A stretch of DNA of 64,000 nucleotides from an uncultured delta proteobacterium (GTDB lineage Bacteria; Desulfobacterota; RBG-13-43-22), in contig CAVQFQ010000006.1 of assembly GCA_963711835.1 (NCBI GenBank), positions 101,213-165,212 of the forward strand. The letters run 5' to 3'. Shown in pieces: positions 3,865-63,413 of this stretch. A program made the position numbers and the translations under genes. The notes under the pieces are model-generated. The model saw only the letters and a program-made list of their open reading frames with translations. It did no database searches and was not told the origin of the DNA. Position 1 is the first letter of the stretch; every line of letters begins with the position of its first letter.

Positions 3865-4602
3865 TCAGGCCTCGGCTCCTCCGGAGAGGGAGATAATCTC
3901 CCCCGTCAGATAAGCCGCTTGCGGGGAGGCCAGAAAGGCCACCAGATCCACGACATCGTCAATACGGGCGATTCGTCCCAGGGGGAGGCCTTTTAGGATT
4001 TCCTTCAGGATCTCCTGATTACTCCAGAAGGGTTTTGAAAATTCCGTCTCCACCACCCCGGGCGCCACGGCATTGACCCGGATGCCGGAAGAGGCCAGTT
4101 CCTTAGCCAGGACTTTGGTCAGCATATTGACCCCGGCCTTGGCTATGCCGTAAATCCCCATGCCGGGGGAGGCCCGATGCCCGGCAATGGAACTGATATT
4201 GATAATGACCCCGCCCTTCTCTTTCATCAGGGGAAAGGCCTGGCGGGAACACAGGAAAGCGGCCTTCAGATTGGAATCCATAATTTTGTCCCAGAGGGGG
4301 ATGTCGGCCTCGGCTGTAAAGGGGGTGAAGATATTCATCCCTAGATTATTAATCAGGATATCCAAGGTTTGAAACTCGGATCGAAGGAGGTTAAAGACGT
4401 TTTCAACCTCCTCGGCCTTGCCCAAATTGGCGGGGATGGTCAGCAGGTCTCCGATCTCCTCTTTGGCTTTTTGGAGGTTGGTTTCTTTCCGGCTGCAAAT
4501 GGCCACCCGGGCCCCTTGCTGAAAAAAATGTCTGGCCAGCCCCAGACCGATTCCGCGCGACCCGCCGGTGATCAGAATTTTTTTATTTTCGAAGTTTCCC
4601 AT
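3865..4602 (-). CDS. Short-chain dehydrogenase/reductase
   Basis: TGGSRGIG, YGIAK catalytic motif and RVNAVAPG. Confidence 0.92.
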   Translation of the reverse strand: MGNFENKKILITGGSRGIGLGLARHFFQQGARVAICSRKETNLQKAKEEIGDLLTIPANLGKAEEVENVFNLLRSEFQTLDILINNLGMNIFTPFTAEADIPLWDKIMDSNLKAAFLCSRQAFPLMKEKGGVIINISSIAGHRASPGMGIYGIAKAGVNMLTKVLAKELASSGIRVNAVAPGVVETEFSKPFWSNQEILKEILKGLPLGRIARIDDVVDLVAFLASPQAAYLTGEIISLSGGAEA

Positions 4603-4727
4603 AGGCTTCCCCCCTGTCGATACCTAAATTTACTTTTTTCGATTTTAACAAATTCAACCTCGATAAGGAATCGAAATCAGATCAGGCAGGTCCTCAGGTA
4701 AAAACTGCCATAGGAATCTCGATAAAC

Positions 4728-5028
4728 TATTAAGGGTCTCAAAATAATAGTGACCAACAGGGACCGGGGGGTCTTCTTTTCTGGGGTTGTCCAAAGGGTA
4801 ACTCATCGCCCTATCCCGGCCCGGACAGCTAAAGGGGTTAGGTGCAGGGCATTCACTCAAGTCCGTTTCGGGCATTAGTGGTGGCCTGTCTCTGAATTGG
4901 ATCCCGAATTTGGCCCGGCAAAGAAGCTTTGGGCTTGAAGGTGGACAACCCAGAAAAGAAGACCCCCCGGTCCCAATTTAAGGCAAGCTCCTCAATTTCA
5001 TGTCAAGACCATTATGAGACCCTTAATA
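4728..5028 (+). mobile_element. MITE-like element A, copy 1 (301 bp)
   Basis: 14-bp terminal inverted repeat TATTAAGGGTCTCA / TGAGACCCTTAATA; inner IR 4760-4793 / 4942-4974; close copies at 11542 and 63115. Confidence 0.85.
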
Positions 5029-5070
5029 AGTTGACTTTTTCAAGGAAATTTGGTCTATAAACCAAAAGGG

Positions 5071-5395
5071 TTAGTATTGTTCAAAAGTTTTGGGATTGAC
5101 GCATTATTGCCTGACTGGGGACCTGGGGTCTTGATTTCAAGGATTGTTCAAAGGGGGATCCTTCCCGCCAATCCGGCCCAGATTTCTAAGGTTGGTTTAG
5201 AGCCGGGCCTTCACCCAACCGGACAAACAGCTTTGGTGAAGGCCTGCTTAAGGCATTATCGTCACCCTTCCAGTCCCGCTAAAAGCGGGATTTCAAGGTG
5301 AGGAGTTAATGGTGGACAATCCATGAAATCAAGACCCCAGGTCCCCTTTCATCGGGTATCAGTACTGTAATGCCCAAACTTTTGAACGATACTAA
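5071..5395 (+). mobile_element. MITE-like element B (325 bp)
   Basis: Terminal IR TTAGTATTGTTCAAAAGTTTTGGG / CCCAAACTTTTGAACGATACTAA; inner IR 5117-5150 / 5313-5346 homologous to that of element A. Confidence 0.7.
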
Positions 5396-5452
5396 ATGGT
5401 TAAGAAAGAGGATTAATATCCCAGGCCAAGTCAAAAAAGAGGGAAAGGATCC

Positions 5453-5716
5453 ATGGAAAATTTAGAATTGAAAACCGGCAATGAAAAAACCAAGGTCATT
5501 ATTCTTACCAACCATTATCGGATCATCGGGGAGATTTTTCTCCTGCCGGGAGCCAGGCTGACCGACTATATCATCGGCTCTAATTCCGCCATTGCCGTGA
5601 CGGACGCCCATGTCTCCAGCCTCGACGGGCGGCTCATCCTTTCGGCCTCCTTCCTGAATGTGGACCGTAATCATATCGAGGTGATCATCCCGGCGGAAAT
5701 GGCTCATTTCGCCTGA
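5453..5716 (+). CDS. Small hypothetical protein (DUF6812-like)
   Basis: 87 aa with a purine-rich RBS; YRIIGEIFLLPGARLTDY pattern recalled from small deltaproteobacterial proteins. Confidence 0.7.
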   Translation: MENLELKTGNEKTKVIILTNHYRIIGEIFLLPGARLTDYIIGSNSAIAVTDAHVSSLDGRLILSASFLNVDRNHIEVIIPAEMAHFA

Positions 5717-6585
5717 GAGGTCCCTGAGGAAAAAACAGGCCTTTCGGACTGCAACCGGGAGGCCATAGCCTCGGGTAACCGCAGGTAAAAGGCCCCTTCT
5801 TCCTTCTTGCCCCTTTTCATACATCCCTGCCCATAGATCCGACATTTCTTTTTAAGTTCCTGAAGGGCCGTCTCTTGCTGGTCCGAAGACAACAAATCCG
5901 AACCTAAGACCTTAACTAAGGCCTGGATCCGGAAACGATCAAGAAAGGGGATCCGTCGGGAAAGCTGGTCCGGGTGGCCGCCCTGTTTGACGACCAGGGG
6001 CTCTTCAATCAGGAACACGGGAAATCGGCAAGAAATGCGAAGCCAGAGGTCATAGTCCTCGCAGGCCGGCAGGCTTTCATCAAAGGGTCCTATCTGAATC
6101 AGGAATTCCCGGCGGATCATAACGGCTGAGGGGCTGACGATACAGCGAATGAGGGAAGGCGAAAAAATATCCCCGGAAAATTTCCGGTGTTTTTTGTGGG
6201 GATTGACCCTCCGGCCATGACGGATCCAAATTTCCTCGGTCTGGCAAATAAGGGCCTGGGGGTTTTCGGCAAAAAAACGGACCTGGGCCTCCAGCTTGGC
6301 GGGAAGCCAGTAATCATCGGAATCCAGAAAGGCGATCCAGGTTCCCTGGGCCAGGCTTAAGCCCCGGTTGCGGGCCGCGCTGACCCCCCGGTTTTCCTGA
6401 TAGATATATCGCAACCGGTTTCCATAGGGTTTAAGGCCTTCTCCGGTCCCGTCCGTAGAGCCGTCATCGATCACGATAAGCTCATAATTGCGACACGTTT
6501 GGCTAAGAACCGATTCAACAGCCGGCCGCAGGAATTCAAAACGGTTATAAGTGGGAATGATAACGCTGATCAGGGGAGCAGGCAC
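5704..6585 (-). CDS. Glycosyltransferase family 2
   Basis: ISVIIPTYNR, IDDGSTD, ARNRG, FLDSDD and EDYDLW. Confidence 0.92.
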   Translation of the reverse strand: MPAPLISVIIPTYNRFEFLRPAVESVLSQTCRNYELIVIDDGSTDGTGEGLKPYGNRLRYIYQENRGVSAARNRGLSLAQGTWIAFLDSDDYWLPAKLEAQVRFFAENPQALICQTEEIWIRHGRRVNPHKKHRKFSGDIFSPSLIRCIVSPSAVMIRREFLIQIGPFDESLPACEDYDLWLRISCRFPVFLIEEPLVVKQGGHPDQLSRRIPFLDRFRIQALVKVLGSDLLSSDQQETALQELKKKCRIYGQGCMKRGKKEEGAFYLRLPEAMASRLQSERPVFSSGTSQAK

Positions 6586-9788: not shown

Positions 9789-11519
9789 TTAAATATGGCC
9801 CAAAAGAGCGATGAGACCTGCCAGGAGAAAACTGGACTCGATCAGGGTCTCAAAAAAAATACTGCCGGGCAAGGCCCATTTTTTTTCATAAGTGGTCAAA
9901 AGCAACCCTTGATACCCGAAAGCAATCAGAAGCCCCAAGGCCCAGAGGGGCAGGAGACCCGACAGGCTGGCCAGCGCTACCAGAATCATGGTTCCTAAAC
10001 ACAACATTTTTAGAAAAAGAAGGGTTTTTTCTTCGCCGATCAAGATGGGCAGGGTTTCCTTGCCCACGATCATATCCCCTTGAATGTCCAGAATATCAAA
10101 AAGCCCGGAGCGGATATAAACAAAACTGCAGATGGCCAAGAAAATGATCAGGATGCTCACCGTTAAGGGCCGGTTTTCAGCCAGGACTGGAATCAGGGTG
10201 GTCACGCCGCCCCACCCGAGGGCTACGGAAAGGGTTTTCGAGGCCGGCAGGTCCTTGATTTTTTTCATGGAGGTAAACCGCTGCCAGACGGCCGGAACGA
10301 TTTGAAAGCTGTAAAGGATGCCCAGGAGGCTCATAAAGGCCAAGAGTAAAAAAGGCTTCCAGCCTAATCGATAGGTGAGGAATAGGGACAAGAGGGTTGC
10401 CCCTATCCCCGAGGAAAAAAAGAGGATCCGGTTCCGTTGATAGAACAGGGAACGATCCGGGTCGTTGTATTCGGCCGCCCCCGAATCCAAGAGATGGTTG
10501 AGGATATGCATGGCATAGATATAGGAAAAGGTAATGGCCATATAGATCCATGGTAAAGGCGCCTGCCGGAGGTGGGCCACCGCCAAACTCAGACAGGCCG
10601 CCCCAAAGGCCACCATCAGGTTGGTTTTTAAAAGGAAACGAAGAAGACGAAAGAGGAAAGGGCTCCAGAAAGGTTCTCCCTTTCCTTTGATGGATTCCAA
10701 TTCCTGGACCACTTTTCGAATCATCCAGTTCGGCGTGGAGGCACCGGCGGTTACGCCCACCTGCTTGAATCGGCTTAATTCTTTCCGGTCCAGTTCCTCT
10801 TCGGTCTCCACCTGAAAACAGGGAGTGCCCACGCCCCGGGCGATTCTTACCAGGCGGCGGGTGTTTCCGCTGTTATAGCCTCCGACGATGACCAGGCCCT
10901 CCACATTCTGAGCCAGGGTCTTGACTTCGGTTTGACGTTCGTGGGTGGCATGACAGATGGTATTGAAGACCAGGAGATCAGGAAATCGTTTTTGGAGACC
11001 CGCAACCACTTCCTGGAAAAGGCTTTCATCCTGGGTGGTCTGGGCGACGACGATGACTTTCTCCAAAGGAGGAAGGCCGTTCACCTGGCCGGAGTCGGAG
11101 ACAACGATACCGGAGCCCTGGGAATAACCCAGAAGACCGACTACTTCCGGGTGGTCCTGATCTCCGACAATAATCGGGGTATATCCCTGGCGGGTATATT
11201 TGCGGATAATGGCCTGGACCTTGATGACCCGTGGACAGGTGGCATCAATAACAAAAAAGCCGGCCTGTTTTAGTTTTTCCTTTTCTTCGGGGGGAATGCC
11301 GTGGGCCCGGATAACAATGGTACCCTCATGCCGATCCTGAAGCCGGTCCAGGATCTGAATGCCTTTTTTTTCGAGCATCCGCAGGACCTGGGGGTTATGG
11401 ATCAGGGGACCATAGGTGTAAATAGGATCCTGGTAGTGATAGGTGGCCTCGATGGCCAATTCCATGGCCCTTTTCACTCCCATGCAAAAGCCGGCTTTTT
11501 TTGCCAAACGGACTTTCAT
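9789..11519 (-). CDS. ispH: 4-hydroxy-3-methylbut-2-enyl diphosphate reductase fused to a C-terminal UbiA-like prenyltransferase domain
   Basis: GFCMGV, DATCPRV, TICHAT, SGN and AGASTP; membrane C-terminal part with NHLLDxxxxEYNDPDR and DILDIQGDxxxGKETLP. Confidence 0.92.
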   Translation of the reverse strand: MKVRLAKKAGFCMGVKRAMELAIEATYHYQDPIYTYGPLIHNPQVLRMLEKKGIQILDRLQDRHEGTIVIRAHGIPPEEKEKLKQAGFFVIDATCPRVIKVQAIIRKYTRQGYTPIIVGDQDHPEVVGLLGYSQGSGIVVSDSGQVNGLPPLEKVIVVAQTTQDESLFQEVVAGLQKRFPDLLVFNTICHATHERQTEVKTLAQNVEGLVIVGGYNSGNTRRLVRIARGVGTPCFQVETEEELDRKELSRFKQVGVTAGASTPNWMIRKVVQELESIKGKGEPFWSPFLFRLLRFLLKTNLMVAFGAACLSLAVAHLRQAPLPWIYMAITFSYIYAMHILNHLLDSGAAEYNDPDRSLFYQRNRILFFSSGIGATLLSLFLTYRLGWKPFLLLAFMSLLGILYSFQIVPAVWQRFTSMKKIKDLPASKTLSVALGWGGVTTLIPVLAENRPLTVSILIIFLAICSFVYIRSGLFDILDIQGDMIVGKETLPILIGEEKTLLFLKMLCLGTMILVALASLSGLLPLWALGLLIAFGYQGLLLTTYEKKWALPGSIFFETLIESSFLLAGLIALLGHI

Positions 11520-11541: not shown

Positions 11542-11840
11542 TATTAATGGTCTCAAAATAAAAGTTACCAACAGGGACCGGGGGGTCTTCTTTTCTGGGG
11601 TTGTCCAAAGGGTAACTCATCGCCCTATCCCGGCCCGGACGGCTAAGTGGGTTAGGTGCAGGGCATTCACCCAAGTCCGTTTCGGGCATTAGTGGTGGCC
11701 TTTCTCTGAATTAGAACCCGAATTTGGCCCGGCAAAGAAGCTTCGGGCTTGAAGGTGGACAACCCAGAAAAGAAGACCCCTCGGTCCCGCTAAGGCAAGC
11801 TCCTCAATTTCATGTCAAGACATTTATGAGATCCTTAATA
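11542..11840 (+). mobile_element. MITE-like element A, copy 2 (299 bp)
   Basis: Aligns end to end with 4728-5028; each TIR carries one substitution. Confidence 0.85.
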
Positions 11841-11844
11841 AGGA

Positions 11845-12846
11845 TCAGCATTCTCTTTCCCCCTGCCCTTCAGCCTGCGCCTGGGGAAGCAGGGAACGCC
11901 TATAGTTTTCAAAAAGGTTTTTCAGGTTTTCCGGGGACTTGGCCAGGGCCACCTCCTGCCGGAATCCTCCGCTGTCGGGCAAACCCCGGGTCAGGATGAA
12001 CAAGGCCCGCCGCAGGCCTTGAATTTGAGCCCTTCCGTATTGATTAGACATGATCCAGTCCCAATAGGAGGTGAGCCATAGACGTCTTTGCTCCAGTGTC
12101 GGCCCGCCCGGCAATCCCCCGGCCTCCAAGGCCCTGATTTCAGTAAAAATCCAAGGGGTGGTGAGGGCCTGGCGGCCGATCATGATGCCATCGGCTCCGC
12201 TTGATTTTTTAAGGGCTATGGCCTGAGAGGCGGAATGGACATCCCCATTCCCGATCACCGGGATTTTTATTTTTTCTTTCATTTCCTTTAAAATGGACCA
12301 GTCGGCTTGACCGGAAAACCCCTGTACGGCCCAACGGGGGTGAATAGTTATGGCATCCACTCCGGCCTCTTCGGCTATTCGGGCGACGGTCTCGAAAACC
12401 GGATTTTCCTTGCTCCAGCCCGGCCGTATCTTTATGGTCAGCGGAAGGGCAATGCTTCGGCGCACAGCCTTGATCAAGGTCTCCACCTGCCTCGGACTTT
12501 TCAGGAGGGCGGCCCCGGCCCCGGTTTTAACCACCTTTTTGACCGGGCAGCCCATATTGATATCGATGATATCCGCCCCGGCGGCCTGGGCGATTAAGGC
12601 GGCCCGGGCCATGATCTCAGGATCGGCACCAAAGAGTTGGACGGTTAAAGGGTGGTCCTCCGGGACGGTCTTAAGAAAAGAACGGCTGGCCGGCACCTCC
12701 CGGACCAGGCCTTCGGAGCTGACCATTTCCGTATAGGCCAGTTCACAGCCCAGGTTCCTGATCAGAAGCCGGAAGGGAAGGTCGGTATATCCGGCCATGG
12801 GCGCCATGAAATAGGGGAAGGAGATGACCCGGTTTCCTATGTTCAC
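11845..12846 (-). CDS. dusB: tRNA-dihydrouridine synthase (DusB type)
   Basis: APMAGYTD, INMGCP, GAGAALL and GNGDV. Confidence 0.9.
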   Translation of the reverse strand: MNIGNRVISFPYFMAPMAGYTDLPFRLLIRNLGCELAYTEMVSSEGLVREVPASRSFLKTVPEDHPLTVQLFGADPEIMARAALIAQAAGADIIDINMGCPVKKVVKTGAGAALLKSPRQVETLIKAVRRSIALPLTIKIRPGWSKENPVFETVARIAEEAGVDAITIHPRWAVQGFSGQADWSILKEMKEKIKIPVIGNGDVHSASQAIALKKSSGADGIMIGRQALTTPWIFTEIRALEAGGLPGGPTLEQRRLWLTSYWDWIMSNQYGRAQIQGLRRALFILTRGLPDSGGFRQEVALAKSPENLKNLFENYRRSLLPQAQAEGQGEREC

Positions 12847-61959: not shown

Positions 61960-63033
61960 CTATCCGATGCTTTTCCCAGGAGAGGCAGGGCCCCTGAAGA
62001 TCTGCTTCATACGCAGCAGCAGGCCCAGGTTCCCTTCCGCCTGATAGGCCTTTTGGAAGAAAGCCTGCTGCCCGTCCAATTCCCTCCGGGCGATGGCCAG
62101 CCAGACCTCCGCGGGGGTGCGGATGACCAGATCAGGTGTATGGGAAGGCCGGGGTTCCAGGACACAGCCTCCATTCTGGATAGACAAATAGGTCTCAAAT
62201 GTCTCGGACCCGGAAACCACGAACCCGATGATCGCGGTCAAGTCCCCGGCCGCTTCGGAATTAAAGAAATCCGGCATGCGGGAGATGGTTTCCCAGGCGC
62301 TCTTCGGAAGAAGTACCGGGCCCACTTCACGGACCGGAAAGGCCTTCTCTCCCTTGGCCATTTCCCTCTGTTCAGACCTGGTCGGCAGACCCAGCTTTTT
62401 CAAATAATAATCAGGAAAGCGCAAGTTAAATGGAAGACCAATAAGCAGGATCAACCCCAAGGGAATCAAGGCCCGTGTTACTACGGAGGGGTATAAACTT
62501 GTCACCACCGCAACGGCCAGTATCCCGGACCAGACATGGGTCATGATCCGGTTGATTCGAATGAAAAACGGGTTTTCCCAAAACTCCCGGGGAGTGGCCT
62601 TTTTAGCGTAATGGTAGGTGAAGGGGTCATGACCGAACAGAGGCGGGAAAAAGGCAGCGGCGAACAGGCAGGTATAAATCCCCGTGACGGCATATTTCAC
62701 CAGGAATGGCCCAAAGACATCCGGAAGGATGAGCAAACAGGTTGAAACCAAGGCGAAATAACCGCCGATAACCCAGTCGAAATAGGTCGGTTTATCCCAG
62801 CGGTAAGCAATCGTAATTATAACGCAACAGTAAGAGAAGATTGCCAGGGAACCGATGGTCAGGTTAGAAGGCGTTACACCCAGGGAGGCCCAGATCTTGA
62901 AAAAAGCCAGGGCCGGGAACGGTGCGACATAGAGGAAAATCTGCCGGGCTGTGCTCAATTTCTTCATGGTTTGCTTTTGTGAGTTCCTGGCCTGGTCCAT
63001 GAGTTCTTCTACAGGGCTAATGCGGTCTTCCAT
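61960..63033 (-). CDS. Membrane protein with a C-terminal SCP2 sterol/lipid-binding domain
   Basis: About 6 TM segments; C-terminal PDLVIRTPAEVWLAIARRELDGQQAF...GNLGLL. Confidence 0.8.
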   Translation of the reverse strand: MEDRISPVEELMDQARNSQKQTMKKLSTARQIFLYVAPFPALAFFKIWASLGVTPSNLTIGSLAIFSYCCVIITIAYRWDKPTYFDWVIGGYFALVSTCLLILPDVFGPFLVKYAVTGIYTCLFAAAFFPPLFGHDPFTYHYAKKATPREFWENPFFIRINRIMTHVWSGILAVAVVTSLYPSVVTRALIPLGLILLIGLPFNLRFPDYYLKKLGLPTRSEQREMAKGEKAFPVREVGPVLLPKSAWETISRMPDFFNSEAAGDLTAIIGFVVSGSETFETYLSIQNGGCVLEPRPSHTPDLVIRTPAEVWLAIARRELDGQQAFFQKAYQAEGNLGLLLRMKQIFRGPASPGKSIG

Positions 63034-63114: not shown

Positions 63115-63413
63115 TATTAAGGGTCTCATAAAGTCTTGACCTGAAATTGAGGAGCTTGCATTAAATGGGACCGGGGGGTCTTCTTTTCTGGGTTGTCCAC
63201 CTTCAAGCCCAAAGCTTCTTTGCCGGGCCAAATTCGGGATCTAATTCAGAGACAGGCCTACACTAATGCCCGAAACGGACTTGAGTGAATGCCCTGCACC
63301 TAACCCACTTAGCCGTCCGGGCCGGGATAGGGTGATGAGTTACCCTTTGGACAACCCCAGAAAAGAAGACCCCCCGGTCCCTGTTGGTCACTATTATTTT
63401 GAGACCCTTAATA
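63115..63413 (-). mobile_element. MITE-like element A, copy 3 (299 bp, inverted)
   Basis: Reverse complement aligns end to end with 4728-5028; perfect 14-bp TIR. Confidence 0.85.

Follow-up and report, generated by a model that had tools for sequence, protein, structure and literature searches.

The 300-bp repeat that occurs three times in the window (the whole stretch of 64,000 nucleotides analysed here) is a new, unnamed MITE derived from IS630, and as such it is a member of a familiar class. What is unusual is the part that it encloses, a conserved, length-constrained and invertible hairpin cassette that is found in at least four MITE families and has been moved between them. The explanation that we favour, and regard as probable, is an IS630-family MITE that duplicates TA on insertion and carries a shared hairpin passenger exchanged by recombination.

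The initial annotation had described three full-length, slightly diverged copies, all of them intergenic, with TA-flanked outer ends of 14 bp and with a longer inner inverted repeat of 33/34 bp around a core of ∼150 bp. Each of these points was borne out (Table 1). The copies were recovered at the positions given there both by a three-way alignment and by BLAST against the window's own genome. They are 299–301 bp long (n = 3) and 94–97% identical to each other (by BLAST, copy B is 94% and copy C 96% identical to copy A), and the mean column identity of the three-way alignment, flanks included, is 89%. Every copy begins with TATTAAGGGTCTCA and closes with the complementary TGAGACCCTTAATA; only copy B shows single substitutions there. 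Beyond the outer TA the flanks are unrelated, and the similarity ends exactly there on both sides. Only the extent had to be adjusted: the positions include both copies of the duplicated TA, and the element proper, which has 297 bp, spans 4730-5026 in copy A. The two inner arms, of which the left has one extra G, are 97% complementary. A motif of 21 specified core bases was found three times in the window and not once in 100 shuffles; a chance origin of the repeat is excluded. Compared with shuffled sequences, the fold of the whole element had z-scores of −8.4 (at −143 kcal/mol) and −8.8 on the two strands.

The flanking ORFs place copy A between an SDR gene (3865-4602, minus strand) and a glycosyltransferase gene (5704-6585, minus strand), copy B between an IspH/UbiA ORF (9789-11519, minus strand) and a Dus gene (11845-12846, minus strand) and copy C after ORF 61960-63033. 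The ORF upstream of copy B in this numbering encodes 576 aa with a LytB/IspH domain (residues 3-275) and a UbiA prenyltransferase domain (306-536), and it looks like a gene fusion. No ORF is common to the copies. In agreement with the initial annotation, no transposase family was detected in the window among the 40 ORFs scanned against Pfam (out of 52 ORFs of ≥200 aa; the 12 omitted are shorter ones that overlap a longer ORF).

Table 1. Features of the repeat, of its neighbour and of the other MITE shells that hold the hairpin module
Feature	Position	Strand	Evidence or remarks
Copy A, composite MITE	4728..5028	+	alignment, BLAST, empty site
Copy A, TA	4728-4729	+	
Copy A, left IS630-type end	4730-4759	+	
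Copy A, hairpin module	4760-4974	+	
Copy A, right IS630-type end	4975-5026	+	
Copy A, duplicated TA	5027-5028	+	
Module left arm, 34 nt	4760..4793	+	pairs with 4942-4974; covariation across 45 modules
Module core, 148 bp	4794..4941	+	conserved across 104 own-genome and 45 multi-genome modules
Module right arm, 33 nt	4942..4974	+	pairs with 4760-4793
Copy B, same composite MITE	11542..11840	+	module 11574-11788
Copy C, same composite MITE	63115..63413	−	module 63167-63381
Neighbouring MITE of another family	5069..5397	+	ends GTATCGTTCAAAAGTT; 230-bp module at 5117-5346
Shell A			ends GTCCCAAAGTTACGTGA; 8-bp duplication
Shell B			ends GTATCGTTCAAAAGTT
Fourth (cluster-5) shell	∼16 loci, e.g. C17:134117-134335, C15:41687-41903		no obvious terminal inverted repeat

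We compared the element with the whole genome to which the window belongs (3.9 Mb in 28 contigs, 89% complete), as had been suggested, and BLASTN returned 83 matches. When the query was split into its outer and inner parts, the matches fell into composites, ∼90-bp copies that consist of the outer ends only, and loci with only the inner 215 bp at ∼70% identity. Therefore the 300-bp repeat is a shell of ∼30 + 55 bp wrapped around a separate module of ∼215 bp. It was thus a good lead to point out the inner repeat as unusual for a MITE on account of its length relative to the TIR, as it belongs to a module that is common to other MITE families of the genome. In this genome there are 17 full composites (277–302 bp) and 6 mini-derivatives, along with some twelve ends that are truncated. 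The term ‘high-copy’ applies in a relative sense only, with ∼35 loci of the shell in 3.9 Mb and 138 loci of the module superfamily.

TA or a one-base variant of it flanks all 23 composite and mini copies listed, usually with t before it and a after it, which makes the insertion target look like TTAA with the central TA duplicated. In 16 of the 17 cluster-1 copies TTAAGGGTCTCA and its complement stand at the two ends, and the terminal repeat extends imperfectly to ∼25 bp. Empty orthologous sites, which the initial annotation had named as a check, were found for copies A and B. The site of copy A is empty in a 1,895-nt contig of a related strain from run X10 (flanks ∼91% identical), in which position 4727 joins position 5027; 299 bases are skipped and two letters fit both sides, which corresponds to a single TA. 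The same contig is also without the neighbouring MITE (5068 joins 5398, with 329 bases skipped and 5 letters shared). Contigs of three runs have no copy B at the orthologous position, where 11525, 11529 or 11533 joins 11853 or 11856 with 22–30 diverged letters in between, a divergence that blurs the junction. A search for empty paralogous sites, in which the joined 80-bp flanks of 23 copies were compared with the own genome, gave only one junction-spanning hit, and this was a self-hit. Terminal repeats, no coding capacity, many copies and empty sites are the properties of a MITE, and they bear out the proposal of a non-autonomous element.

The mini copies, which consist of the shell only, are deletion products of composites and not virgin shells, because in all three shells they retain arm remnants and have varied junctions, located at short microhomologies (GACC or CCCC, for example). 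Several copies may have a junction type in common, which means either that such forms went on transposing after the deletion or that one deletion took place repeatedly. Twelve solo ends were examined as possible neighbours of an autonomous parent, and all were truncated copies running into ordinary ORFs.

The initial annotation had offered IS630, IS5 and IS701 as candidate families, and the TA duplication together with the ends of the shell points to IS630. The outer 30–55 bp on each side match the ends of ∼1.1-kb, TA-flanked elements of the IS630 family (Tc1/mariner superfamily) in the genome of a relative and in metagenomes. The nearest of these that were found, in G007 and in sediment and wetland contigs such as L185 and L141, have the same TA flanks and terminal repeats of the type TTAA..GTCTCA.AAT, but they carry a transposase gene where the MITE has the 215-bp hairpin module. 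The relative, genome G007 of the same family, contains two identical ∼1.1-kb TA-flanked elements (one at L042:936-2050) with an ORF of 342 aa that scored 236.7 bits on NF033545 (NCBIfam IS630; cut-off 100) and 125.7 bits on PF13358 (DDE_3). Between the right end of the MITE and the left, promoter-side end of the G007 element, 25 of 29 positions are identical, among them those of the TTGACA box that precedes the transposase gene. All 80 metagenome loci that were kept (L141-L220) encode relatives of this transposase (71–93% amino-acid identity), and most of these loci have the two IS ends at a distance of ∼1.11 kb; the five elements that were printed in full are 1108–1109 bp long and TA-flanked, and their ends read TTAAC[C/T]GTCTCA. 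Relatives of the G007 transposase were present in 499 metagenome stretches, which makes the ∼1.1-kb element a very common one in metagenomes from sediment, wetland and peat.

The ends differ in one detail. Positions 5-6 are GG at both ends of the MITE and CY in most full-length elements, and in L185, L205, L210 and L166 GG occurs at one end only, which begins with TTAAGGGTC as in the MITE. The search for a transposase gene bounded by the ends of the repeat, which the initial annotation had named as a check, gave relatives with one matching end, but no autonomous element with TTAAGGGTCTCA at both ends was found in the own genome, in the genomes of relatives or in the metagenome loci examined. 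In the own genome (an 89% complete assembly, and repeats often remain unassembled) there was no match to PF13358 and none to the G007 IS630 transposase. Because the own genome showed no IS630 transposase, the copies in the window would be mobilised in trans, or would by now be stranded. Degraded remnants of the IS630 group, with stop codons or as a fragment only, were seen at G016:C13:2493-3495 and G014:C17:454096-454275; they sit in genomes rich in composite MITEs, and their end ...AAATAATATAGAC resembles the left part of the shell in MITEs from several relatives.

The hairpin module is much more widespread than the IS630-type shell. An nhmmer search of the own genome gave 250 hits at 138 non-overlapping loci. 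The full-length modules number 104; their modal length is 216–218 bp, and a variant of 230 bp exists as well. The 104 modules form clusters of 38, 20, 17 (the one in the IS630 shell) and 16 members, one cluster of 3 and ten singletons. They fill at least four MITE shells with differing ends and target duplications, and most clusters, judged by their consensus flanks and end motifs, are tied to a shell of their own (Table 1). In the four main clusters and cluster 10 (94 of the 104 modules) none was found outside a shell. The fourth shell has CTAACCAAAG... on one side and ...AGAGATAAATTCTCAGAC on the other, with the two orientations roughly equal, and it may depend on a type of transposase that needs no terminal repeats. 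The neighbouring MITE in the window lies 40 bp from copy A (nhmmer hit C6:106336-106551, both ends found), and its 230-bp module has an extra small hairpin, CCCGCTAAAAGCGGG.

Within the core, the blocks CCGGCC and GGCCTG are invariant or nearly so, beside the conserved inner ends of the arms (TTGTCC/GGACAA), whose inner 7 bp are invariant in an alignment of 45 modules. These blocks persist across lineages that are only ∼62% alike overall (45 modules, several genomes). Further genomes of the family contain these shells and modules too. The composite MITE is present at 70–81% identity in at least 8 genomes of another genus, and matches to the module were obtained in 14 of 21 genomes of the class, the own genome included; 40 other sampled families of the phylum gave none. 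The strict 21-base core motif was limited to 33 stretches in six MAGs, labelled as delta-proteobacterial, Thermodesulfobacteriota or ‘Pseudomonadota bacterium’; viral contigs gave no match to this motif, and the plasmid and phage collections gave none to the element. In some modules of other organisms the central ∼82 bp (window positions 11658-11741) are replaced by a 15-nt palindrome, TCCCGCCAGGCGGGA (seen in a contig of run X10), a further sign that the centre of the core can be dispensed with or is easily deleted.

Shells that are unrelated may enclose near-identical modules. Cluster-11 modules are found 28 times in shell A and 7 times in the unrelated shell B, with 84.9% likeness between these two groups. 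Cluster-13 modules, which are only 66.5% like the cluster-11 ones, are present in shell B as well; nevertheless, shell B itself is 84.0% alike between its two sets of copies. In a tree of 66 modules the labels for the shells are clustered, yet they require 15 changes compared to a minimum of 6, and shell B falls into two deep clades (some of the automatic labels on this tree are too permissive, and the IS630 label of L039 is false). A score for inverted repeats in the flanks, set against a null of shuffled pairs, was uninformative since clusters share shells, and only the printed flanks were used.

The module occurs in either orientation in every shell. It is flipped in 3 of 17 copies in the IS630 shell and in 3 of 24 in shell B, and, as read from the printed flanks, in ∼7 of 28 in shell A and in about half of those in the fourth shell. 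Flips are also present in another MAG (L093 and L108 have one orientation, L117 and L100 the other). In one flipped copy a one-base bulge of the arm has moved along with the core, and in two singletons the arms have been lengthened inward by copying the other arm. The tree of the IS630-shell copies, in which the flip of C25:101487 was cut at the wrong place, is star-like and does not decide between one and three inversions for the three flipped copies. The two orientations were seen at different loci; contigs break at the borders of the element, so that one state per locus is visible.

The favoured reading of these data, an IS630-family MITE with an exchanged hairpin passenger, would work as follows. 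The MITE would consist of the two ends of an IS630-family insertion sequence, with the hairpin module where the transposase gene would sit, and the shell alone would supply what the transposase needs. An IS630-family transposase made elsewhere would cut the MITE out and paste it into a TA, which would thereby be duplicated. Recombination or gene conversion between the inverted arms would keep the arms matched, and the same recombination at the arms would flip the core and copy cores between shells in either orientation; the candidate process, deduced from the patterns described above, is that the two arms pair and recombine and that mismatches between them are corrected. Several observations count against this explanation. 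The own genome, 89% complete, gave no IS630-family transposase, the best autonomous candidates match the MITE at one end only, and the invariance of blocks across lineages that have otherwise diverged so far is not predicted for a purely passive passenger. The mechanism explains neither the conserved blocks (the inner 7 bp of the arms, and CCGGCC and GGCCTG in the core) nor the tight length of 216–218 bp.

Could the module instead be a functional RNA that is spread by MITEs, either an sRNA gene or a double-stranded RNA hairpin (a bidirectional terminator, a stabiliser or an RNase III substrate)? We think this very unlikely. The very stable fold and the conserved sequence blocks in the core would suit an RNA, and so would a change in three related modules (L020, L095 and L031:205), in which three adjacent G-C pairs of an interior helix have become G.T on the plus strand only. 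The covariation, however, is confined to the closing stem. We examined it in a MAFFT alignment of 45 modules (24 from the own genome and 21 from others), which replaced an hmmalign alignment of 104 modules from which RNAalifold gave poor consensus folds on both strands. With the 45 modules, RNAalifold predicted only the closing stem and two invariant short pairings. In the closing stem 16 of 23 pairs were changed on both sides, whereas four interior helices, which we proposed from folds of single sequences (a different RNA structure could be missed in this way), showed little covariation: in helix 4 none of the 5 pairs had two-sided changes and one pair was broken in 17 of the 45 sequences, and in helix 6 59.6% of the cells were paired. 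The wobble mismatches that arise from transitions in the stem were without strand bias (among the 104 copies, 49 G.T on the plus and 48 on the minus strand), and in tandem contexts the module was co-oriented with the neighbouring genes in 30 cases and anti-oriented in 27. A comparison with Rfam, also suggested in the initial annotation, matched no family: there were no hits at the gathering score in the 64-kb window and only chance-level ones when E was raised to 10 for copy A and to 1 for two other module types. A promoter scan detected no promoter-like site inside the module, and its two terminator-like hits correspond to a short hairpin in each arm and were no commoner than in shuffled sequence. 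Moreover, the module takes both orientations relative to the shell, whose right end bears the promoter-like TTGACA box of the IS. By eye, no convincing sigma-54 or IHF site was apparent in the core. Contigs with the module are present in the metatranscriptome runs X10 and X14, in which the depth sums many copies and organisms and carry-over of DNA is possible. The restriction of covariation to the stem, the lack of strand and orientation bias, the lack of an Rfam match and the copied arms favour a process at the level of DNA, and we take the module to be not an RNA gene but a passenger at the DNA level, which recombination at the arms has shuffled.

Alternatively, the module may itself be a small mobile repeat with 33-bp terminal repeats of its own, which an enzyme would insert in either orientation and specifically into MITE shells, without target duplication; it would then be a parasite of MITEs. 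The same module subfamily in unrelated shells, a module tree on which the shell labels fail to form monophyletic groups, both orientations in every shell and the lack of a direct repeat flanking the module inside the shell are all consistent with this. There is also a parallel in another domain of life: the SMRs of Haloquadratum walsbyi, as described in PMC3119063, have terminal repeats, cause no target duplication and insert in a targeted manner into other mobile elements, and the ‘fwd/rev’ switch repeats described there occur at identical positions. By this description, SMR-A and the switch repeats are, like our module, small, have terminal inverted repeats and lie inside mobile elements without target duplication; they sometimes stand in opposite orientations at the same place, and their mode of movement is given as unknown. 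The behaviour of the module appears closest to that of these repeats, a likeness drawn from their description. Here, however, no intact empty target was found, and recombination between the arms accounts for the data with no need of a dedicated enzyme. None of the shells seen was without arm remnants, as every mini copy in the three shells keeps part of an arm, at varying junctions, and the 94 modules of the four main clusters and cluster 10 never occur outside a shell. In the own genome there is no gene between module-type arms either, and the sole long pair of arms belonging to a single module is due to the insertion of an ordinary IS. An autonomous element with module arms as its ends was sought with an arm-to-arm screen, which flagged 14 pairs >300 bp apart and 7 left arms without a partner; the two closest pairs were opened, and they represent an IS inserted in a module and a chance match of arms. 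On balance, independent insertion of the module is the main rival explanation, though an unlikely one. Outside the window, at G000:C10:53481-55975 in the own genome (G000), the module of a shell-B MITE is split by a ∼2.2-kb insertion with inverted ends of its own (AGAGATTTTAAAGG...) and two ORFs (219 and 451 aa). Copies of CTAAAAGC lie on either side of this insertion, which has the appearance of an IS that has entered a MITE. Flipping by a site-specific invertase that alters the expression of neighbours, i.e. an inverton, would agree with 33-bp inverted repeats around a segment of ∼150 bp (the known size range of invertons), with both orientations in every family and with the invariant inner 7 bp of the arms. 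Against it, the core gave no promoter-like hit in the scan, two states were never observed at a single locus (contigs end where the repeat begins), and locus-specific regulation is hard to picture for 138 dispersed loci without orientation bias relative to the genes; we consider it extremely improbable. Finally, the module might be a new kind of selfish DNA, a hyperparasite confined to MITEs, which passes by hopping or conversion between MITE families with unrelated transposases, rides on whichever of these is active and flips freely, and whose core boxes would bind an unknown protein that promotes exchange or boosts transposition; this is a speculative idea and we hold it to be improbable.

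RUP of Streptococcus pneumoniae, which is linked to IS630-Spn1, and Correia/NEMIS of Neisseria are bacterial MITEs that duplicate TA. MITEEc1 is filed under IS630, to judge from the label MITEEc1_IS630 in ISfinder as it appears in PMC11602168, and the comparison with Correia is drawn from PMC4853749. By their descriptions, RUP, Correia and MITEEc1 are like our element in that they are short and non-coding, have terminal repeats, duplicate TA, are present in many intergenic copies and fold into long hairpins. They differ in that they have ∼100–155 bp and fold via their own ends, whereas here the hairpin is a separate internal cassette that is also present in MITE families with other ends and target duplications. 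In our literature search neither this element nor a cassette of the hairpin type common to bacterial MITE families was found described.

For annotation, the 300-bp repeat of this uncultured sediment lineage is of use since it breaks assemblies, sits in promoter regions and marks differences between strains. If the cassette gives its carriers an advantage in transposition or retention, or brings about its own exchange, it would add a layer to the origin of non-autonomous elements and to the competition among them, and the lineage offers ∼100 natural copies of the module per genome in which this may be tested.
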